Below the pieces are notes generated by a model. The model worked only from the letters and a program-made list of their open reading frames with translations, was not told the origin of the DNA and did no database searches. DNA of 64,000 nucleotides from Vicinamibacterales bacterium (GTDB lineage Bacteria > Acidobacteriota > Vicinamibacteria > Vicinamibacterales > UBA8438): positions 1,731,762-1,795,761 of the forward strand of contig OZ252227.1 in assembly GCA_965249175.1 (NCBI GenBank). The letters are read 5' to 3'. Each line of letters opens with the position of its first letter. Positions within the stretch are counted from its first letter, which is position 1. The position numbers were made by a program, and so were the translations under genes. Below are positions 52,150 to 63,307 of this stretch, piece after piece.

Positions 52150-52316
52150 GGACGCGTCAACCAAGTCATGCTCGCTGGGTCTGGGCGCGCGGGAGTGGCT
52201 CCGCCGGCCCTACCGTTGCGCAACCCCGGGTGGGCACCTAAGATTGCTCGCTGGCGACCCGCCGGGGGGCGCTACAGACGACGTTGGCTTCGGCGTCAAG
52301 TCAGGGAGATCGACAG

Positions 52317-53369
52317 ATGGATGACAAGAAGGTTGAGGAGTTGGCCTTTCGCGTAATTGGTGACATGGGCGGTTCGTTTGTGATGGCGCTCGGTCACATC
52401 GGCGATCGGCTCGGGTTGTTCGCGGCGATGGCTGGCGCCGGGCCGCTCACGTCGTCCGAGTTGGCCGCGAAGACCAATTTGAACGAGCGCTACGTTCGGG
52501 AATGGGCGAAGGCGATGGTGGCCGCCGAGTACGTCGACTATGAGCCGGAATCCCAGCGATACGTGATGACGGACGAGCAGGCGTTCGTGCTGGCGAACGA
52601 CGACAGCCCGATGTCAGTCGGTGGTGGCCTGCACTTCACCACGCCGTCCATGTACAACGTCCCGAAGGTGATGAAGGCGTTTCGCGAGGGTGGGGGAGTC
52701 TGCTACAACGAGATCGGAGACGAGATCCCGGAAGGAATCGAGCGCTTCTTCCGGCCGGGGTATGTCCATTTCCTGGCGAAGGATTGGATCGGGGCGTTGC
52801 CGGGTATGGTAGACCGCCTGACTCGCGGCGGCGCCGTCGTCGACATCGGTTGTGGTCGGGGGCAATCGACTGTCGCGATGGGGCGCGCCTACGGAAACTC
52901 GACGATCCTGGGCGTCGACAACCATGCTGAGAGCATCGCGTATGCGCGGGACATGGCCGCGCGCGAGGGGCTGGGCAACGTGACGTTTCTCGAGGCACCT
53001 GCCGATCGACTGCCAAGCGACCAGACGTTCGACCTGGCGTGTAGCTTCGACTGTATCCACGACATGGTGGATCCCGTAGGAACCCTCACCGCGATCCGTG
53101 GGGCGCTCGCCGACGACGGGATCTACTTCTGGTCCGAACCGAACGGGTCGGACAAGCCCGACGAGAATCGGAACATCCTCGGTCGTCTGTTCGCGTCGAT
53201 CAGCCCGCTGCATTGCATGACCGTCTCGCTCTGTCACAAGGGCGAAGGGCTGGGCACGTTGATCGGCGAACGCGGCGCGCGGGCGCTGGCTGAGTCCGCG
53301 GGCTTCTCGTCCTTCGAGAAAGTCGCGATCGACAACCCGTTCAACCAGTTCTTCGCGCTCCGTGGCTAG
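52317..53369 (+). CDS. SAM-dependent methyltransferase with N-terminal winged helix (Rv2258c-like)
   Basis: IGDRLGLF, ERYVREW, VVDIGCGRG, FDCIHDMVDP, LHCMTVSL. Confidence 0.88.
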   Translation: MDDKKVEELAFRVIGDMGGSFVMALGHIGDRLGLFAAMAGAGPLTSSELAAKTNLNERYVREWAKAMVAAEYVDYEPESQRYVMTDEQAFVLANDDSPMSVGGGLHFTTPSMYNVPKVMKAFREGGGVCYNEIGDEIPEGIERFFRPGYVHFLAKDWIGALPGMVDRLTRGGAVVDIGCGRGQSTVAMGRAYGNSTILGVDNHAESIAYARDMAAREGLGNVTFLEAPADRLPSDQTFDLACSFDCIHDMVDPVGTLTAIRGALADDGIYFWSEPNGSDKPDENRNILGRLFASISPLHCMTVSLCHKGEGLGTLIGERGARALAESAGFSSFEKVAIDNPFNQFFALRG

Positions 53370-54837
53370 CAGCCCGTGGTGAAAACGCCCTTTCGTAGGT
53401 CGAGGGGCATGTGTTCGTGACACCGTGTCATAAGGTCGAGAAACGACGAGTGCGGCAGATCTTGCGCATCTCGCGCCCACGCGGGCGATACGAGGGTCCA
53501 GAGGCGGCCAAGATCAGCGATCAAGGCCTCGAAGACGGCGACCGCGCGGCCTTGGAGGCTCCGCGGCGTGCCGACGCCCGTCAGCTGCCGCATGAGGAGC
53601 CCAAGATTGAACCCGCAGACGTGCACAAGCACGCGCTTGAGGATGTTGGGATGCCCACGCAGATGCACCCGGCGCAGCCGCCCGGTCTCGTAGAGATGCG
53701 CGTTGGGGCGTTCGAGCAACTCGCCCCGCCGTCGCAGCAGCCGTTGCCCACGCGTGCCCCGAATGCGCCGACGGTTCGCGTACACGGCGTCGCGCGCCGC
53801 CGCCTTGCCTGTCCAGTTGCGTCGCCCGCGGTCCGGCTCCGAAACATAACTGCGCACGCCGAGCGCGGCGAACGCCACCATCGTCTCGTTACTGTGATAC
53901 CCCTTGTCCCCGACGACCTCGGCGATACCGGCGCCGGCCGGCAGGACGGCTTCGACGTGGTCGGCCGCCGTGATCAGGGTCTCGACCATCGTCGTCGTAT
54001 CGCCGTCGTCGGCATCCTGCACGGTGACGCCGACGATGGCCCCCGTCTCCAGGTCCACCGCATGCTCCGCGGTGTGCGCCAAGTGCGTGCGCCCGTCCTT
54101 CAGCTTCGTGATCTTCGCGTCCGGATCCTGCGGATGCGTCCAGTCGTCGTTGGAGCCTTTCTTCTTCCGTTTCCGGTCGAACCGGGCCAGCTCAGCGCGG
54201 GTCGGCGTGACGATGCCGGACGCCTCGGCCAGCCCGGTCAGAAACGCCTCGTAGCCTTCGCCCGTGTCCCGGCGCACGATACTCCGCAATGCGGCGTTCG
54301 CTTCCAACGTCGTGGCATCGATGCCGAGGGTCCGCCCGGTCACGAGCTGGGCGTCGGCCAGTTGCTGCAGCACCCACGTGAACACCGCTTGATGGGTCTC
54401 GACGTCGATCAGGCGCCGGGTGCGCGACAGCGTCGAGTGATCCGGCGGCGCCTCGTGCAGCTCGAGGTCCAGAAACTGCCGGATGCTCAGCGAATCGGCC
54501 GCCCGCCACGCGATCGCCCGCTCCGAGTCCAGCCCTTCGAAGTAGCCGAGCATCAGCAGCCGGAAGTACCGCCCCGGCGCCAGACTCGGACGACCGACGC
54601 CGTCCGCGTAGAACGGCGCGCATTGCGCCTCGACGAACGCGTCGAAGCCCGTGTCATCGAGGATCCGATTCAATCGCTGATAGAACGGATGCGCCGCACT
54701 GCGAGGCAGGTCGCTGGTGGGAACCCACATCGATGCTTGCCGCGCCCGGCGTCGTCGTTTGCCCATCGCCATGCGCGACAGTGTAGTACGCGGGATCGAT
54801 CGTGTCGATCCCTAATAGGGACTTTCACCACGGGCTG
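53370..54837 (-). mobile_element. IS1182/IS5-like insertion sequence (transposase 53366-54772)
   Basis: 15-bp perfect IR CAGCCCGTGGTGAAA; CTAG duplicated on both sides; GRPS, PPDHSTLSRTR, IDAT, GDKGY motifs. Family assignment is approximate. Confidence 0.88.
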
Positions 54838-56290: not shown

Positions 56291-57145
56291 ATGAGGCGCT
56301 TGAGTCTGGTCCTGGTCGTCACGTTGGTGGTCGTTGCTGCCGCGGCATCTGCGCACGCGCAGGGCGTCACGAAGTACGTCCGCTACGAGCACAATGGCAC
56401 GACCTCGTATGGCGTCCTCGAAGGTGACACGATTCATCAGCTCAGTGGCAACGTCTTCGAGTCACCACAACGCACCGGCACGACGGTCGAGATGGATCAG
56501 GTGACGCTCCTTCCTCCGAGCGAGCCGCAAAAAGTGATTGCCGCGGGACTCAACTACCGCAGTCACATCGGGCAGCAGAACCCCGCGGAGTACCCTGGTT
56601 TGTTCGACAAGCATGCGACGTCGCTGATCGGGCACGAGGCCGAGATTACCTACTACGAGGATGCGACCAACCTGCACTTCGAAGGTGAGATGGTGCTGAT
56701 CATCGGCAAGGAAGCGAAGAATGTCTCGGTCGCCGACGCCCCCGACTACATTTTTGCCGTGGCGCCGGGAAACGACATCAGCGAGCGGGTCTGGCAGGGA
56801 AGCGACCTCCAGTGGTTTCGCGCGAAGGGCGCCGACACCTTTGGCCCCGTCGGCCCGGTCATGGTGCGCGGCGTGAACTACGACGACTTGTTGCTCGAGA
56901 CCCGGGTCAACGGCGAGGTCCTGCAGTCTCAGCGCACGAAGGACCTGCTATTTGACTCGTCGTTTCTCGTCAGCTACATCAGCCGGTATGTGACGCTGTA
57001 CCCGGGGGATATGGTCTTCACGGGCACTCCCGGGAGCACCTCGGCCATGCAACCCGGCGATGTCGTCGAGGTCGAGCTCGAGGGCGTCGGCGTCCTCAGC
57101 AACCAGATCGGCCCCAAGGGCGGGCGACGGACGAACGAGCAGTAG
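56291..57145 (+). CDS. Fumarylacetoacetate hydrolase-family protein with signal peptide
   Basis: MRRLSLVLVVTLVVVAAAASAHA-Q; FEGE, NDISER, AKGADTFGPVGP, TGTP. Confidence 0.88.
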   Translation: MRRLSLVLVVTLVVVAAAASAHAQGVTKYVRYEHNGTTSYGVLEGDTIHQLSGNVFESPQRTGTTVEMDQVTLLPPSEPQKVIAAGLNYRSHIGQQNPAEYPGLFDKHATSLIGHEAEITYYEDATNLHFEGEMVLIIGKEAKNVSVADAPDYIFAVAPGNDISERVWQGSDLQWFRAKGADTFGPVGPVMVRGVNYDDLLLETRVNGEVLQSQRTKDLLFDSSFLVSYISRYVTLYPGDMVFTGTPGSTSAMQPGDVVEVELEGVGVLSNQIGPKGGRRTNEQ

Positions 57146-57275: not shown

Positions 57276-58556
57276 ATGTCATTTCCCAAGGTGCTCGCGA
57301 TCGTTGTCACCCTCAGCCTCGGCCTCGGTGTGTCGGCGAGCGCAGAGGAGGCCGCCGGCGTGCCGACGTTCACGAAGGACGTCGCGCCGATTTTCTTCGA
57401 CAACTGCGTGTCGTGCCACCGGACCGGCGAGTTCGCGCCGATGTCGCTGATGACCTACGACGATGCTCGCCCGTGGGCGCGCGCCATCAAGCAGCGTGTC
57501 GAGGCTCGCGAGATGCCACCCTGGTACGCGGAGCCGGGTCATCAGACCTACGTCAACGACGCCAGCCTCAGCGATGATCAAGTCCAGACGATCGCCGCGT
57601 GGGTGGACGGCGGCGCGCCGCGCGGCGACGCCGGCGATTTGCCGGTTGCGCCCGAGTTTGCGGCGGATTGGACGATTGGCGAGCCCGACGCTGTTTACAG
57701 CATGCTCGAGTCGTTCGACGTGCCTGCCGACGGGACGGTGCCGTATGTCTACTTCACCATTCCGACCAACGTGCCGCACGACAAATGGATCAAGGCAGTC
57801 GAGATTCGTCCCGGCGATCGGCGCGTCGTTCACCACGTCATCGCTACGATGCAGAGCCCCGACCCGGAGTTCCCGCCGTCGCCGGGGCCTCGGCTGACGC
57901 TGAGCCCAAGTGGTCGGGGTGGCAACGTGCTGGGGAGCAATTCGCTCGCCGGCACCGTGCCGAACAAGTTCGGCGCGACCTTCCCCGACGGCGTGGCCTT
58001 GAAGATGGAAGCCGGTACGGAGATCGTGTTTCAGATGCACTACACGACGATCGGCGAGGCCGCGTCCGATCAGACGAGCGTCGGACTGATTTTCCAGGAC
58101 GAGGAGCCAACGTGGGAGGCCGGCGGCGGCATCGTCATCAACCCGCGGTTCGCCATCCCCGCCGGGGCCGAGAGCCACGAGGTGCGGGCGGAGCAGGAGT
58201 TGAAAGAGGACACATACCTCACCGACATGACGCCGCACATGCACTCACGCGGCAAGGCGTTCTCCTATACAGCCGTCTATCCGGACGGGACCGAGGAGAT
58301 TCTCCTGAACGTGCCGAACTACACCTTCGACTGGCAGCTGACGTACGAGTTCGCCGAGCCCAAGCTGCTGCCGGCCGGCACGAAGCTCGTGGGGATCGCG
58401 CATTTCGACAACTCCGTCAACAACCGCGCGAATCCCGATCCGACCGCCGAGGTCCGCTGGGGCGATCAGACATGGGAAGAGATGATGATCGGCTTCTACG
58501 GCACCCTGAGTGCGGAGGACATGAATAAGCGCACCACGACCCAGAACCAGCAGTAA
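57276..58556 (+). CDS. Exported cytochrome c / copper type II monooxygenase-like fusion, paralog A
   Basis: Signal peptide, CVSCH, VHH, QMHY, HMH, FDWQ, WEEM. Confidence 0.8.
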   Translation: MSFPKVLAIVVTLSLGLGVSASAEEAAGVPTFTKDVAPIFFDNCVSCHRTGEFAPMSLMTYDDARPWARAIKQRVEAREMPPWYAEPGHQTYVNDASLSDDQVQTIAAWVDGGAPRGDAGDLPVAPEFAADWTIGEPDAVYSMLESFDVPADGTVPYVYFTIPTNVPHDKWIKAVEIRPGDRRVVHHVIATMQSPDPEFPPSPGPRLTLSPSGRGGNVLGSNSLAGTVPNKFGATFPDGVALKMEAGTEIVFQMHYTTIGEAASDQTSVGLIFQDEEPTWEAGGGIVINPRFAIPAGAESHEVRAEQELKEDTYLTDMTPHMHSRGKAFSYTAVYPDGTEEILLNVPNYTFDWQLTYEFAEPKLLPAGTKLVGIAHFDNSVNNRANPDPTAEVRWGDQTWEEMMIGFYGTLSAEDMNKRTTTQNQQ

Positions 58557-58611
58557 GCCGCTCGACCGCGAGAGTGCGGGCGAGCAGGTCCTGTCGAGGA
58601 GCCCGTTGCTG

Positions 58612-60000
58612 ATGCCGATGACGAAGTCATTGAAAGTGACGCTCGCCGGAGCGGCCGTCGTCATAGTCGCGCTCCCGGGCGTCGCGGTCGCCGCGGAGGC
58701 TGCGCCCGCCGAAGCGCGCGCGGACGACGTGACGTACGCCGAGGACGTGGCGCCGATCATCTTCAACAACTGTCTGGTGTGTCACCGTCCCGGCCAGGTC
58801 GCGCCGATGCCATTCCGCGACTACAAGGAAACGCGGCCATGGGCGCGCGCGATCAAGGACAAGGTGCAGTCGCGCGAGATGCCGCCGTGGTTTGCCGATC
58901 CGCAGTACGGCGAGTGGCTGAACGACCGCCGGCTCAGCCAGGAGCAGATTGACACGATCGCCGCCTGGGTCGACGCCGGTGCCCCGATGGGCGAGGCGTC
59001 CGACATCCCGGAGCCGCCGATGTTTTCGGACAACTGGGCGCTCGGCGATCTTGGCGACCCGGATCTCATCGTCCCGATGCCGGTGACCGTCGAGGTGCCG
59101 GCTGATGGCGAGGAGGGCTACCAGCAGTTCTACGTGAAGAACGACCTCACGGAAGACAAGTTCATCAAGGGCATCGAGGTGCGGCCGGGCAATCGCGCCG
59201 CCGTGCATCACGCCGTCATCGACATGGCCAGGCTCCCGCCGTGCTCCGAGCTCGACGACCGCGGCCAGCTCACGCCGGTGCCGGACTGCGAACGGGACGA
59301 CGGCGGACAACAGTTCGTCTTCTCGCGCGAGAGCTATAAGCTGATCGGCTACGCACCCGGTAAGGGCTTTCAACGATACCGCGAGGGCACGGGCAAGCGG
59401 ATCAGCCCGGGGTGGTATTACCGCTTCGACCAGCACTACACGCCCATCGGCACGTCTCAGACCGACCGCACCGAGATCGGCTTCTGGTTTCACGACCAGC
59501 CGGTGCAGACGGAAATGATTCAGAAGATGGTGAGCGGGAGTGGCGCCTTCATCGCGGAGAGCACAGAGGTCGTCGCGTCCGAGGGACAGCGGCGCCCACG
59601 CGTGCCGAACATTCCTCCGAACGCCGGCGACTGGAAGCTGGTCGCGACCACCCCGTTCGCCGAGGACATCACGCTCTTCGCGTTGGCCCCGCACATGCAC
59701 CTGCGCGGCAAGGACATGCGGTATGTCCTGGTCCGGCCGGACGGCTCGGAGGAGACGCTTCTGAGCGTGCCGCGCTACGACTTCAACTGGCAGCTCTTCT
59801 ATGAGCTGGTCGAGCCGATCGCGATCGAGGCCGGCAGCAAGCTCATGACCGTCGGTCACTTCGACAACTCGATCAAGAACCGCTACAACCCGGCGCCCGA
59901 CAGCGAGGTCTACTGGGCCGAGCAGAGCTGGGACGAGATGTTCAACGGGTTCTACGAATACTCCGTGGCCATGACCGCCAAGCCGTCCACCGAGAACTGA
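58612..60000 (+). CDS. Exported cytochrome c / copper type II monooxygenase-like fusion, paralog B
   Basis: Signal peptide, CLVCH, VHH, DQHY, HMH, FNWQ, WDEM. Confidence 0.8.
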   Translation: MPMTKSLKVTLAGAAVVIVALPGVAVAAEAAPAEARADDVTYAEDVAPIIFNNCLVCHRPGQVAPMPFRDYKETRPWARAIKDKVQSREMPPWFADPQYGEWLNDRRLSQEQIDTIAAWVDAGAPMGEASDIPEPPMFSDNWALGDLGDPDLIVPMPVTVEVPADGEEGYQQFYVKNDLTEDKFIKGIEVRPGNRAAVHHAVIDMARLPPCSELDDRGQLTPVPDCERDDGGQQFVFSRESYKLIGYAPGKGFQRYREGTGKRISPGWYYRFDQHYTPIGTSQTDRTEIGFWFHDQPVQTEMIQKMVSGSGAFIAESTEVVASEGQRRPRVPNIPPNAGDWKLVATTPFAEDITLFALAPHMHLRGKDMRYVLVRPDGSEETLLSVPRYDFNWQLFYELVEPIAIEAGSKLMTVGHFDNSIKNRYNPAPDSEVYWAEQSWDEMFNGFYEYSVAMTAKPSTEN

Positions 60001-60029
60001 CGAGCGACAACTTCCCCGGAACGCGCCCC

Positions 60030-60725
60030 ATGACGCGGCGAATCCTGCTCGTCATCGCCTTGCTTGGTGCGTGCGCACTCTGGCTCCCGGCTTCGCTCGC
60101 CGCCCACCCGATGGAGGGCCAGAACGCCGCTTTCGTCCAGGGTGTCGATGGCCCGGTACCAGGTCCGTTCATGTATCTGGGCGCGAAGCACATGGTAACG
60201 GGCTACGATCACTTGCTCTTTCTGGTCGGCGTGATCTTCTTTCTCTATCGCCTCCGCGATGTCGTCCTTTACGTCAGCCTGTTCACAATCGGTCACAGCA
60301 TCACGTTGCTGGCGGGCGTACTCGGCGGTCTGGAAGTGAACGCGTACGTGATCGACGCCGTTATCGGCCTCTCGGTCTGTTACAAGGCCTTCGAGAACAT
60401 CGGTGGCTTCGAGCGCGTGTTCAAGATACGGCCGAACACGCGAATCGCCGTGCTGGTCTTCGGGCTGTTTCACGGTCTCGGGCTCGCAACAAAGCTGCAG
60501 GAGTTCACCGTGACGGCCAACGGTCTGGTGACCAACATACTGAGCTTCAACGTAGGGGTGGAGATCGGGCAGATCCTCGCGCTCACGGGCGTACTGATTG
60601 CGATGACGTACTGGCGCACCCGCCCAAGTTTCTTTCGCCACGCGTTTGCGACGAACGCCCTGCTGATGACGGGTGGGTTCGTCCTGACGGCCTACCAGGT
60701 ATTTGGGTTCGTCTACTATCCCTGA
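60030..60725 (+). CDS. HupE/UreJ-family membrane protein
   Basis: Signal ending AAH, GYDHLLFL, FTIGHSITL, FGLFHGLG, FNVGVEIGQ. Confidence 0.88.
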   Translation: MTRRILLVIALLGACALWLPASLAAHPMEGQNAAFVQGVDGPVPGPFMYLGAKHMVTGYDHLLFLVGVIFFLYRLRDVVLYVSLFTIGHSITLLAGVLGGLEVNAYVIDAVIGLSVCYKAFENIGGFERVFKIRPNTRIAVLVFGLFHGLGLATKLQEFTVTANGLVTNILSFNVGVEIGQILALTGVLIAMTYWRTRPSFFRHAFATNALLMTGGFVLTAYQVFGFVYYP

Positions 60726-60727
60726 GC

Positions 60728-61312
60728 ATGGCTGACGCGCCGACGCCTCGAACCCAGCCGGCATCGGTCGGGAGAATTGCCGCTGCCGCGGTGGTGGCAT
60801 TCCTCGTGGCCGCGCTGGTGTTCGTGGGCGCGGTATTACCCGCGGAGTACGGGACGGACCCGCTCGGTACCGGCGAGCTGCTCGGACTCCTCGCGTTGGC
60901 GCAGGTGGCGGCGATTTCCGCGGAAACCGGCGAGTATCGCCTCGATGCGGCCGAGCTCGTCGTGCGCCCGTCCGAGTGGGTCGAATACACGTATCGCATC
61001 GAGCAGGGCGCCAGCATGCTGTACTCGTGGGAAGCCACCGGCCCGGTGAGCTACAACTTCCATAGTGCGCCGGACGGGGCGCCGCCGGGGTACGCCGAGA
61101 GCTTCGACGCTCAGGAGAGCGACGCGGCGCACGGCAGCTACAACGCGCCGTTCACCGGCGTGCATGGGTGGTATTGGGAGAACCTCGGCGCGTCCGAGGT
61201 GACCATCACGTTGAGCACGGCGGGGTTCTACGCCGACGCGCACGAAGCGCGCGATCGCGTCGACGGGTATCATTCGCTCACGGATCTCCGTGGAAACCTG
61301 GTTCAAGACTGA
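60728..61312 (+). CDS. Membrane-anchored His-containing hypothetical protein
   Basis: TM, LPAEYGTDP.G, NFH, APFTGVHGWYW. Confidence 0.72.
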   Translation: MADAPTPRTQPASVGRIAAAAVVAFLVAALVFVGAVLPAEYGTDPLGTGELLGLLALAQVAAISAETGEYRLDAAELVVRPSEWVEYTYRIEQGASMLYSWEATGPVSYNFHSAPDGAPPGYAESFDAQESDAAHGSYNAPFTGVHGWYWENLGASEVTITLSTAGFYADAHEARDRVDGYHSLTDLRGNLVQD

Positions 61313-61336
61313 CCGATGCATCGAAGGGGAAAGCTC

Positions 61337-62491
61337 ATGACTATTCGCACACCGCTCGCGTTGGGCGTCGCCGTCGTTGGCCTTGTGATCGCGAGTACCT
61401 GCGGGCACGGCCACCTGTCCGCGGCCGCGAATGCCGGCGTCGGGCCGGAGCTCGAGTCGACCGGGCCGATCACGTTCAGTCCTGACGGCACGCTGTTCGT
61501 CGCCGACAACCGCGCCGCCGCGATCTACGCCCTCGATTTGGCCGCACATGGGTCGGGGGCCTCGCCCGGGACAAAGAGCGTGCCCGCCGTCGATCAGCAG
61601 ATTGCCGCGCTCCTCGGCACCGATGCGCGCGAGATCCAGATCGCCGATCTGGCGGTCAACCCCGTGTCGCGCAACGCGTTCGTCTCGGTGTCGCGTGGTC
61701 GCGGCGCCGGCGCCCGGCCGGTCCTCGTCCGGATCGACGGCGCGGGTCAGCTGGAGGTCATCGCGCTTGGCGACGTGGCGTACACGATGGTCGAGCTGCC
61801 GAACCCACCTGACGCGGCGCCCAGCGCCGACGGCGATCGGCCGGTGCCGCGACGTGACGGGAGTTGGCTCGCGAACGGTCGCGTGCGGATGCAGACGGTG
61901 ACCGACATGGCTTACGTCGACGGGCAGCTCTTCATCGCCGGCCTGTCCAACGACGAGTTCTCGTCGAAGCTGCGCTCGGTCACCTATCCGTTCGGCGAGG
62001 CGAGCGCCGGCGCCAGCGTGGAGATCTGGCATGCCGCGCACGGGCAGTTCGAGACCGAATCGCCGGTCTACACGTTCGTGCCCTACGACGTCGACGGCGA
62101 GCAGAGCCTGATTGCCGGCTACCTCTGCACGCCGCTGGTCAAGTTCCCGATCGCGGACCTGAAACCTGGGGCCAAGGTGATGGGGAAGACCATCGCCGAG
62201 CTGGGCAACCGCAATCGGCCATTAGACATGATCGTCTACGAGAAGGGCGGCCGCGACTATCTGTTGATGTCGAACACCAGCCGCGGCGTGATGAAGATTC
62301 CGACCGAGGGGTTCGGGGCGTCGTCGGTGACCGAGCCGGTCGGCGGCGGTGGCACCGCCGGTGCCGCCTACGAGACAGTGTCGCAGATGACCGGGGTCGA
62401 GCAGCTGGACCTGCTCGACGACATGCACGCCATCGTCATCGCGCGCGATGATGCGGGGGTCGCGAACCTCGAGGCGGTGGCGCTCCCGTAG
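61337..62491 (+). CDS. Exported hypothetical protein, beta-propeller-like
   Basis: Signal peptide; GPITFSPDGTLFVAD-type blades; YLCTPLV, NRPLDM. Confidence 0.72.
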   Translation: MTIRTPLALGVAVVGLVIASTCGHGHLSAAANAGVGPELESTGPITFSPDGTLFVADNRAAAIYALDLAAHGSGASPGTKSVPAVDQQIAALLGTDAREIQIADLAVNPVSRNAFVSVSRGRGAGARPVLVRIDGAGQLEVIALGDVAYTMVELPNPPDAAPSADGDRPVPRRDGSWLANGRVRMQTVTDMAYVDGQLFIAGLSNDEFSSKLRSVTYPFGEASAGASVEIWHAAHGQFETESPVYTFVPYDVDGEQSLIAGYLCTPLVKFPIADLKPGAKVMGKTIAELGNRNRPLDMIVYEKGGRDYLLMSNTSRGVMKIPTEGFGASSVTEPVGGGGTAGAAYETVSQMTGVEQLDLLDDMHAIVIARDDAGVANLEAVALP

Positions 62492-62554: not shown

Positions 62555-63307
62555 ATGAGCTCGAGAGCCGTCGCTGCGTTGTGCGCGTTGCTGATTGGGG
62601 CGGTGAGCGTCGTGGACCCGGCCGCCGCGGGCCAAGGGCGGGGTGCGATCGCATCCGCGTATCGCGCGCCGCGCACGGCGGATGGACAGCCCGACATCTC
62701 CGGCATCTGGACCAATGACACGCTGACGCCGCTCGAGCGGCCGACCCGGCTCGGTGACAAGGAGAACATGAGCCCATACAGTCGCGGCATCACCCGCGGC
62801 GTGCCCGGCTCGACGATTCCGAACACCTACAACACTGGCAATCACATCTTCCAGACGCCTCACTACATCGTCATCCTCTACGAGATGGTGCGCGAGCCGC
62901 GCATCGTCCCGCTCGGCAATCGGCCGCCGCTCCATTCGGAGATCCGGCAATGGATGGGTGATGCGCGGGGGCACTGGGAAGGCGAGACGCTCGTCATCGA
63001 GACGACGCACTTCACCGAGCAGGGGTGGATCACACCCAACCAGAACGCGGGACGGATGCACGGTGTGCCGGTGAGCCGCCGGCTTCGCACGGTCGAGCGG
63101 TTTACCAGGGTCGCGCCGCACGTGCTCGACTGGCAGGTGCGTATCGAGGATCCCAACGTCTACACGCAGCCGTGGACGCTCCTGCTGCCGTTAAAGCGCG
63201 ACATGAGCTACGACCTCTTCGAGTACGCCTGCCGTGAGGGGAACCGCGCGGTGACGGGGATTCTCGGCGGGGCCCGCCACGTCGAACGCCTGCAGGGGCG
63301 ACGCTAG
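62555..63307 (+). CDS. Third ACHEGN-family paralog, internally shortened (possible pseudogene)
   Basis: GQPDISGIW and GHWEGETLVIET present; central segment of the paralogs missing; motif reads ACREGN. Confidence 0.65.
   Translation: MSSRAVAALCALLIGAVSVVDPAAAGQGRGAIASAYRAPRTADGQPDISGIWTNDTLTPLERPTRLGDKENMSPYSRGITRGVPGSTIPNTYNTGNHIFQTPHYIVILYEMVREPRIVPLGNRPPLHSEIRQWMGDARGHWEGETLVIETTHFTEQGWITPNQNAGRMHGVPVSRRLRTVERFTRVAPHVLDWQVRIEDPNVYTQPWTLLLPLKRDMSYDLFEYACREGNRAVTGILGGARHVERLQGRR

Follow-up and report, generated by a model that had tools for sequence, protein, structure and literature searches.

Tandem cytochrome c-fused, PHM/DBM-like copper monooxygenases and their HupE_UreJ_2-linked neighborhood in a Vicinamibacterales bacterium

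PHM, DBM, and TBM are textbook eukaryotic copper enzymes that depend on ascorbate, and a locus in the genome of a Vicinamibacterales bacterium raises the question of whether bacteria encode enzymes of this class in which a fused heme stands in ascorbate's place, and which of the neighboring genes belong with them. The locus lies within a 64,000-nucleotide stretch of contig OZ252227.1, referred to here as the window, and comprises seven closely spaced plus-strand genes between positions 56291 and 63307, with GC contents at third codon positions (GC3) of 0.80 to 0.89. Central to it are two adjacent paralogs, A (57276–58556; 426 amino acids) and B (58612–60000; 462 amino acids), followed by genes coding for a HupE_UreJ_2 membrane protein and for proteins designated D, E, and F. 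A reading of the DNA made without database searches (the sequence-only reading) had proposed that A through E form a single periplasmic hydroxylation or amidation system. We find that the enzymatic core of this proposal holds, with A and B being heme-fused PHM/DBM-like copper monooxygenases, a known enzyme class with a new variation in the fused heme. With moderate confidence, we further favor the reading that both are periplasmic enzymes of the PHM/DBM type and that the chemistry of their family is most likely PAM-like.

Copper core and heme domain of A and B

A and B share 41% identity (E, 1e-107), both have an N-terminal hydrophobic signal segment, and each contains exactly one CxxCH, MPPW, HH, HY, HxH, and C-terminal EM motif. 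In A, which we designate A-type, the heme domain carries CVSCH at residues 44 to 48 (nucleotides 57405–57419) and MPPW at residues 80 to 83; the candidate CuH ligands are in HH at 186–187 (57831–57836) and HY at 255–256, and the candidate CuM ligands are in HMH at 321–323 (58236–58244) and EM at 402–403 (58479–58484). The corresponding motifs in B are CLVCH at 56–60 (58771–58785) and MPPW at 92–95 in the heme domain, HH at 201–202 (59206–59211) and HY at 277–278 (59434–59439) for CuH, and HMH at 363–365 (59692–59700) and EM at 444–445 (59935–59940) for CuM. Residues of B are numbered from the TTG at 58606 that opens its reading frame, and translation probably starts at the ATG at 58612, because the database representative has 462 amino acids. 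The signal peptide, single CxxCH, and six copper ligand candidates that had been picked out in both paralogs are therefore more than coincidental motifs, as all six motifs are invariant across a 33-sequence family alignment, and about 110 of 120 family members retain the same heme and ligand motifs, far above chance. These 120 proteins derive from 82 loci, in which we called genes and clustered their products for comparison of neighborhoods. The order and spacing of the ligands also resemble those of PHM and DBH: for B, the HH-HY, HY-HxH, and HxH-EM distances are 75, 86, and 80 residues, for A they are 68, 66, and 80, and we take the equivalent distances to be 64, 70, and 70 in PHM and 70, 79, and 73 in DBH.

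Further evidence places the paralogs in the PHM/DBM class, as the sequence-only reading had suggested. First, the Pfam domain Cu2_monoox_C (PF03712) matches B with 29.7 bits against a cut-off of 23 (E, 5.4e-7), and it is matched at an E of ≤1 by 32 of the 33 aligned family members; A has no PF03712 match at an E of ≤0.01, with only weak cytochrome c matches in Pfam, and is assigned as PHM-like because it is 41% identical to B. Second, an AlphaFold2 model of B, built from the 33-sequence alignment (predicted local distance difference test score, pLDDT, 75.6; predicted template-modeling score, pTM, 0.75), was compared with the PDB using Foldseek, and the 31 best matches are all to human DBH or rat PHM, with a probability of 1.0, E values from 1.8e-13 (the top match, DBH 4zel_A) to about 1e-9, 309 to 343 aligned columns, and target-normalized template-modeling scores of 0.35 to 0.63. 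The matches ranked after these are unrelated and about four orders of magnitude weaker, and the PHM-like fold, which had earlier been set as a check on the proposal, is thus what the model shows. Searches of PDB sequences with full-length B and with the full family profile returned nothing useful. A sub-profile of the C-terminal domain does reach DBH weakly, aligning aPHmHlrGk with sqlHtHltGr at chain indices 373 and 375; adding the construct offset of 39, we take these to be H412 and H414, the CuM histidines of DBH, onto which H363 and H365 of B are aligned. The candidate CuM methionine of B, M445, lies 80 residues past H365 in an invariant DEM motif, and the candidate CuH ligands H201, H202, and H277 each occur once, do not vary in the family, and follow the expected order and spacing.

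The fused c-type heme, also part of the sequence-only reading, is supported as a putative class-I-like domain of about 100 residues with CxxCH and MPPW invariant in the 33 sequences, even though its sequence matches are weak. Helices are predicted in the model of B at residues 44 to 55, 73 to 89, and 112 to 123, weak Pfam cytochrome c matches are seen in 32 of the 33 family members, and a profile of the heme domain matches only c-type cytochromes and heme c sites in the PDB, albeit weakly (E, 0.18 to 1.1; cytochrome c6, a cytochrome c-550-like protein, and the alpha subunit of hydrazine synthase). The methionine of MPPW is likely to be the sixth heme ligand. Heme proteins are known to supply other enzymes of this general kind: the cytochrome domain of cellobiose dehydrogenase feeds lytic polysaccharide monooxygenases, and cytochrome b561 supports PHM and DBM. 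The analogy to these systems lies in a heme protein giving single electrons to an extracytoplasmic copper monooxygenase, but the heme of A and B would be c-type and within the same polypeptide, and the likeness is mechanistic, not one of homology.

A and B can thus be compared directly with the eukaryotic enzymes. They share with PHM, the N-terminal catalytic domain of eukaryotic PAM, a two-domain beta-sandwich fold (Foldseek E, about 1e-12), the Cu2_monoox_C domain, the HH...H and HxH...M order at similar spacing, and a secreted or extracytoplasmic location, and some related genomes have a gene for a PAL-like lyase close by, a parallel to the pairing of PHM with PAL (see below). They differ from PHM in being bacterial and periplasmic, with a fused cytochrome domain that PHM lacks and presumably no use of ascorbate; sequence identity is 15 to 18%, and both the match to the PHM N-domain family and the residues that anchor the substrate in PHM are missing (see below). 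With DBH/DBM, tyramine beta-monooxygenase, and MOXD1 they share the best structural match, the aligned HxH, and a common HxHL.G+ motif, but they have the heme c domain instead of the DOMON and dimerization domains of that group.

The tandem arrangement is not a recent duplication. Wherever two family members are adjacent on the same strand, the A-type gene comes first and the B-type gene follows it (22 of 22 pairs), from which we conclude that the tandem in the window is an old, conserved arrangement; the fixed order also suggests a division of labor between the paralogs, which may form a heterodimer or act one after the other. The family itself is very large, and the concern that it might be unique to this genome can be set aside: a search of 1.84 billion cluster representatives with the family profile found 21,854 proteins at an E of ≤1e-3 and 5,329 at an E of ≤1e-30, the nearest relatives being in Vicinamibacterales and Blastocatellia, both Acidobacteriota. 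Our literature searches for bacterial PHM-like, PAL-like, and PF03712 proteins found no characterization, which does not itself prove that none has been published. In many of the more distant members, the heme and copper core is preceded by an N-terminal AhpC/TSA redoxin domain (e.g., P0361, P0384, P0401, P0416, P0444, and P0459), which explains the database name 'thiol-disulfide isomerase', and some carry additional modules, including an alpha/beta-hydrolase, ankyrin repeats, EF-hands, a BlaR1-type M56 sensor, and a 3-keto-disaccharide hydrolase.

Gene neighborhoods differ among the relatives. In Blastocatellia (L014–L042 and L081), the order begins with a thiamine pyrophosphate enzyme (c8), c7, and a small cytochrome c or a pyrroloquinoline quinone (PQQ) dehydrogenase, and continues with the A-type and B-type genes, a DUF1579 gene (c1), and an opposite-strand gene coding for a glyoxalase-fold protein (c12). 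In the clade nearest to the window's B (L004–L011 and L064; 52 to 55% identity), a single PHM-like gene is followed by one coding for a large CBM9-like/DUF5916 protein (c6), and upstream is either a MacB/FtsX-type permease (c9) or a TonB-dependent-like outer membrane barrel (c10).

The putative HupE_UreJ_2 permease and proteins D and E

The gene downstream of B (60030–60725) codes for a 231-residue membrane protein that matches PF13795 (HupE_UreJ_2) with 186 bits (E, 4.5e-55), and has a signal peptide ending in AA and followed by HP, an H54-x6-H61 motif (KHMVTGYDH), and several transmembrane segments; it is a putative metal permease. Against PF04955, the canonical HupE_UreJ family, it scores 17.8 bits, under the cut-off of 23, and the original assignment to HupE/UreJ is therefore correct for HupE_UreJ_2 but not for the canonical family. 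The nickel and cobalt handling cited as precedent applies by name only. The window protein resembles the PF04955 permeases in its signal peptide and succeeding His-Pro, in an H-x-G-x-DH-like motif, and in the distant kinship indicated by the weak match, but it belongs to PF13795, is always paired with D in this lineage, and has no hydrogenase or urease genes nearby. We found no functional study of PF13795 or HupE_UreJ_2 in the literature.

Is the permease part of the same system as A and B? HupE_UreJ_2 genes are present in 28 of the 82 loci, and in 27 of these 28 they are within two genes of the monooxygenase. They occur in two arrangements, one in which HupE_UreJ_2 is co-directional and downstream (the window, L001, L002, and L082–L084, with L003 recognized by tblastn), and one in which it is divergent and upstream, and often fused to a further N-terminal domain. 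The linkage noted in the sequence-only reading, for which conservation of the neighborhood had been proposed as a check, accordingly recurs beyond this genome. Within the window, the gaps from A to E are 49 (A-B), 29 (B-HupE), 2 (HupE-D), and 3 bp (D-E), in accord with the same-strand spacing of 2 to 55 bp reported at the outset, and no terminator-like sites were found between the genes on the plus strand; the gaps of 2 to 29 bp without a terminator suggest a single transcript.

Protein D (60728–61312; 194 amino acids; GC3 of 0.83 in frame) is, as first described, a His-containing anchored protein, with one N-terminal transmembrane helix and invariant H112, H146, and YAESFD, but its role as a partner of the monooxygenases is not sustained. 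The D family has 1,677 homologs, yet among 80 genome loci D is present in only the three closest relatives, and in every D context examined it is directly 3' of HupE_UreJ_2. Moreover, HupE-D pairs are found without a PHM-like gene in L087–L091, beside ilv genes or the gene for an extracytoplasmic function (ECF) sigma factor, and because the pair recurs in this way we regard it as a self-standing module, with D being a partner of HupE. An AlphaFold2 model of D is a periplasmic beta-sandwich (jelly-roll, GOLD-like) with generic matches only. The possibility that D is a copper chaperone is unsupported, as the fold search yielded no cupredoxin-, CopC-, or PCuAC-like match, and D is similar neither to the N-terminal domain fused to HupE elsewhere nor to the 187-residue gene product encoded after the Blastocatellia pairs.

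Protein E (61316–62491; 391 amino acids, or 384 if translated from 61337, as in its 384-residue homologs) is predicted from sequence to be secreted or anchored. It belongs to a family of at least 7,005 homologs with 57 to 98% identity, invariant H239, H242, and C271, and no Pfam domain. The propeller-like fold initially attributed to E could not be confirmed, with no Pfam or PDB match even with the family profile, and we rejected the reading of E as a diverged PAL-like propeller, since it shows no similarity to the PAL-like family c5 described below. Nor is E convincing as a partner: the A-B-HupE-D-E order is confined to loci with E at 93% identity, a homolog sharing 66% identity sits elsewhere with no PHM or HupE gene nearby, and none of the 80 genome loci contains E. 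Most likely, E is a neighbor without a functional relation to the other genes. In L085 and L086, an E homolog is followed by a gene coding for a product of 406 to 414 amino acids.

These patterns bear on an explanation in which A and B are real enzymes, and HupE_UreJ_2, D, and E are simply downstream genes of unrelated function. The occurrence of HupE-D without a PHM-like gene, the E homologs at other sites, the restriction of the five-gene order to genomes with a near-identical E, and the absence of both A and E from L001–L003 all fit this explanation. However, proximity alone does not readily account for HupE_UreJ_2 adjoining PHM-like genes in two independent arrangements across 28 loci, for its presence in 53 of 57 loci collected with a PAL-like gene as the seed (see below), or for the close spacing that suggests a common transcript. 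We consider it a possible but doubtful account of the locus as a whole. HupE_UreJ_2-D is instead probably a metal-handling membrane module that has been recruited repeatedly beside these metalloenzymes, and it would handle metal for the monooxygenases. What stands of the five-gene system is therefore the two enzymes and a recurrent HupE_UreJ_2(-D) module, without E and without D as a direct partner.

A PAL-like lyase in related loci and the likely chemistry

The idea of a periplasmic hydroxylation or amidation reaction finds support outside the window. In one Vicinamibacterales clade there is a conserved gene order of DUF1579 (c1), c5, HupE_UreJ_2 (on the opposite strand), c4, and monooxygenase, in which c5 is a family of secreted, six-bladed NHL propellers that are PAL-like. 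Among the genome loci, c5 is present in 18 of 82 and is within three genes of the monooxygenase in 16; the loci with c5 include L043–L078 (e.g., L070:5753-6892) and the metagenome loci L092–L171. The c5 profile aligns end to end with rat PAL (PAM; 3fvz) over about 250 residues in one stretch (E, 3e-26). Counting residues along this alignment, with numbering fixed by the full-length PAM row 5wm0_A, shows that the PAL zinc ligands H585, H690, and H786 correspond to invariant H150, H256, and H347 of c5, and that the catalytic Y654 and R706 correspond to invariant Y217 and R271. The six-bladed NHL propeller with its zinc ligands, tyrosine, and arginine is thus common to c5 and the PAL domain, but c5 is a separate secreted protein and has a glycine in place of D787, a calcium ligand of PAL. 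In PAM, the lyase is a fused domain, whereas in these loci it is encoded by a separate gene.

When metagenome contigs were scanned in the reverse direction, starting from the PAL-like family, and loci with enough sequence were counted, the picture was the same: HupE_UreJ_2 is just downstream of the PAL-like gene in 53 of 57 loci, and a monooxygenase gene is within 6 kb of it in 26 of 33. Some loci contain a further such pair, convergent with the first and on the other strand (L137:3979-6809, L119:7131-9149, and L045:9400-11576), in which a PHM-like gene is directly upstream of a shorter PAL-like gene, the domain order of eukaryotic PAM. We also considered whether c4, a small secreted protein, could be a Gly-terminated precursor peptide, but its mature part is about 100 amino acids with two invariant cysteines and no conserved C-terminal glycine.

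Because a PAL-like lyase with the catalytic set kept clusters with the monooxygenase, the linkage supports a PAM-like two-step chemistry, and a functional tie to HupE_UreJ_2, in that clade. By the same token, we consider alpha-hydroxylation beside an amide nitrogen followed by N-C cleavage, a PAM-like oxidative dealkylation or amidation, to be the chemistry most likely to apply to the family. The hydroxylation/amidation idea thus gains from the lyase genes clustered in other genomes, but there are none in the window, and the lyase-free pair in the window may act on a substrate differing from that of the PAL-linked clade.

A plausible reaction scheme can be outlined. Mature A and B would each consist of a class-I-like monoheme cytochrome c domain and a catalytic core of two beta-sandwiches, with CuH (His-His plus the His of HY) serving in electron transfer and CuM (HxH plus the Met of EM) activating O2. 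A periplasmic donor would reduce the heme, with soluble cytochromes c and the cytochrome domains of PQQ dehydrogenases as candidates; the heme would then hand single electrons to CuH, the role played by ascorbate in eukaryotes; and CuM would bind O2 and hydroxylate a C-H bond of a periplasmic substrate.

Several observations weigh against this reading, some of them bearing on the enzymes and others on their chemistry. The Pfam cytochrome families Cytochrome_CBB3 and Cytochrom_C score 19 to 20 bits against cut-offs of 21 to 27, and are thus below threshold. The N-terminal catalytic domain family PF01082 matches just one of the 33 members, at a nonsignificant E of 0.18, and a sub-profile of the N-domain found neither PHM nor DBH among PDB sequences, such that the CuH assignment depends on the fold match, motif order, and spacing. 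Copper, heme, and activity are all predictions from sequence for A and B. The carboxylate-binding residues of PHM, which we take to be R240 at position HxH-2 and, past the methionine, N316 and Y318, have no conserved equivalents in the alignment; position HxH-2 is occupied by A, T, S, I, Q, or W, Met+2 by N, I, or Q, and Met+4 by F, W, Y, or L. Even the PAL-linked enzymes may therefore bind substrates differently, and an invariant R367 and a nearly invariant K369 after HxH could be substitute anchors. The PAL-linked loci belong to a single, fairly narrow clade, in which the PAL-like proteins are 68 to 92% identical to one another and the monooxygenases only 45 to 47% identical to the window's B. 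Finally, tblastn with c5 representatives found nothing within the 64-kb window, which also contains no c1 (DUF1579), c4, or PQQ dehydrogenase genes.

A fuller version of the favored reading would have the soil Acidobacteriota possess a periplasmic counterpart of PAM, in which a cytochrome c-driven PHM-type monooxygenase, a separate PAL-type zinc lyase, and a dedicated HupE_UreJ_2 copper/zinc transporter carry out ascorbate-free N-dealkylation or amidation, and A and B of the window represent a lyase-free, two-subunit branch. We put this forward tentatively, as one possibility that could well be wrong.

In an alternative that we find rather unlikely, the enzymes would hydroxylate small molecules in the manner of DBM and TBM, acting on amines or on benzylic or aliphatic C-H bonds without a lyase, with PQQ dehydrogenases oxidizing the resulting alcohol and their cytochrome c domains returning two electrons to the heme. 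PQQ dehydrogenases are indeed common neighbors, being present in 36 of the 82 loci, within three genes in 31, and adjacent in 18; a cytochrome c domain is part of the PQQ dehydrogenases of L081 and L085, and L081 also has a small cytochrome c upstream. The lack of a PAL-like gene in the window and in the Blastocatellia tandem loci, the lack of conservation of the PHM carboxylate-binding residues, and DBH as the top structural match are all in keeping with such hydroxylases, as is the DUF1579 lipocalin-like protein encoded after the Blastocatellia pair, which would suit a small hydrophobic ligand. Nonetheless, a PQQ dehydrogenase is absent from the window too, throughout its 64 kb, the close linkage to PAL-like genes in another clade speaks for carbinolamide chemistry, and residues specific to the substrate are not readable from the sequence. 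A role in redox or copper handling (as an oxidase, a peroxide-linked electron sink, or a copper buffer), with the PHM-like fold reused as a scaffold, is very improbable. The AhpC/TSA redoxin domain of many relatives, with its tie to thiol/peroxide chemistry, and the adjoining putative metal permease would fit it, but the full CuH and CuM ligand set is invariant, including the methionine that serves O2 activation in this class, and the catalytic residues kept in the PAL-like neighbor imply a hydroxylated product to cleave.

Flanking genes and implications for the family

The two remaining genes of the locus flank the core. Upstream, FAH (56291–57145) codes for a secreted member of the fumarylacetoacetate hydrolase family (Pfam FAA_hydrolase, E of 4e-56, plus Rv2993c-like_N) with a signal-like N-terminus; it is thus possibly periplasmic, which is unusual for the family. 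FAH is separated from A by 130 bp and may be co-transcribed with it, and its position upstream of B or the monooxygenase gene is kept only in the closest relatives (L001–L003 and L082–L084). Downstream, F (62555–63307; 250 amino acids), 63 bp from E, codes for a secreted protein with no Pfam match, and paralogs of F are encoded within a few kilobases of PHM-like genes in L004, L005, L043, L047 (with several copies), L070, L092, and L093. An NCBIfam scan of A, B, HupE, D, E, and F returned no matches. Further upstream in the window, a gene coding for a helix-turn-helix methyltransferase (52284–53369) lies between Band_7 and aminotransferase genes and is followed on the minus strand by a DDE transposase gene (53366–54772; DUF772/DDE_Tnp_1). 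Where the window has these two genes, the related loci L082 and L084 have a gene for a 130-residue product alone, and from this comparison the 52284–54772 segment looks like a strain-specific insertion.

The main interest of these findings stems from the linkage to PAL-like genes in other loci, and the gain is smaller for the window itself, where the lyase is absent. A review of PAM treats eukaryotic lineages only and describes amidation as catalyzed by PAM only (PMC6529398). The bacterial family is annotated in databases, but as far as we found, no member has been the subject of a study. If the proposed function is correct, more than 20,000 sequence clusters would represent a bacterial family with a fused cytochrome c in ascorbate's place, and would offer a tractable model for the long-debated electron transfer between the two coppers, with a built-in, spectroscopically visible donor, as well as ascorbate-free catalysts for peptide amidation. 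The linkage also provides a first functional context for HupE_UreJ_2 and its partner D. A PHM-PAL partnership in bacteria would, in addition, bear on where this pairing arose, and would be relevant to the origin of PAM.

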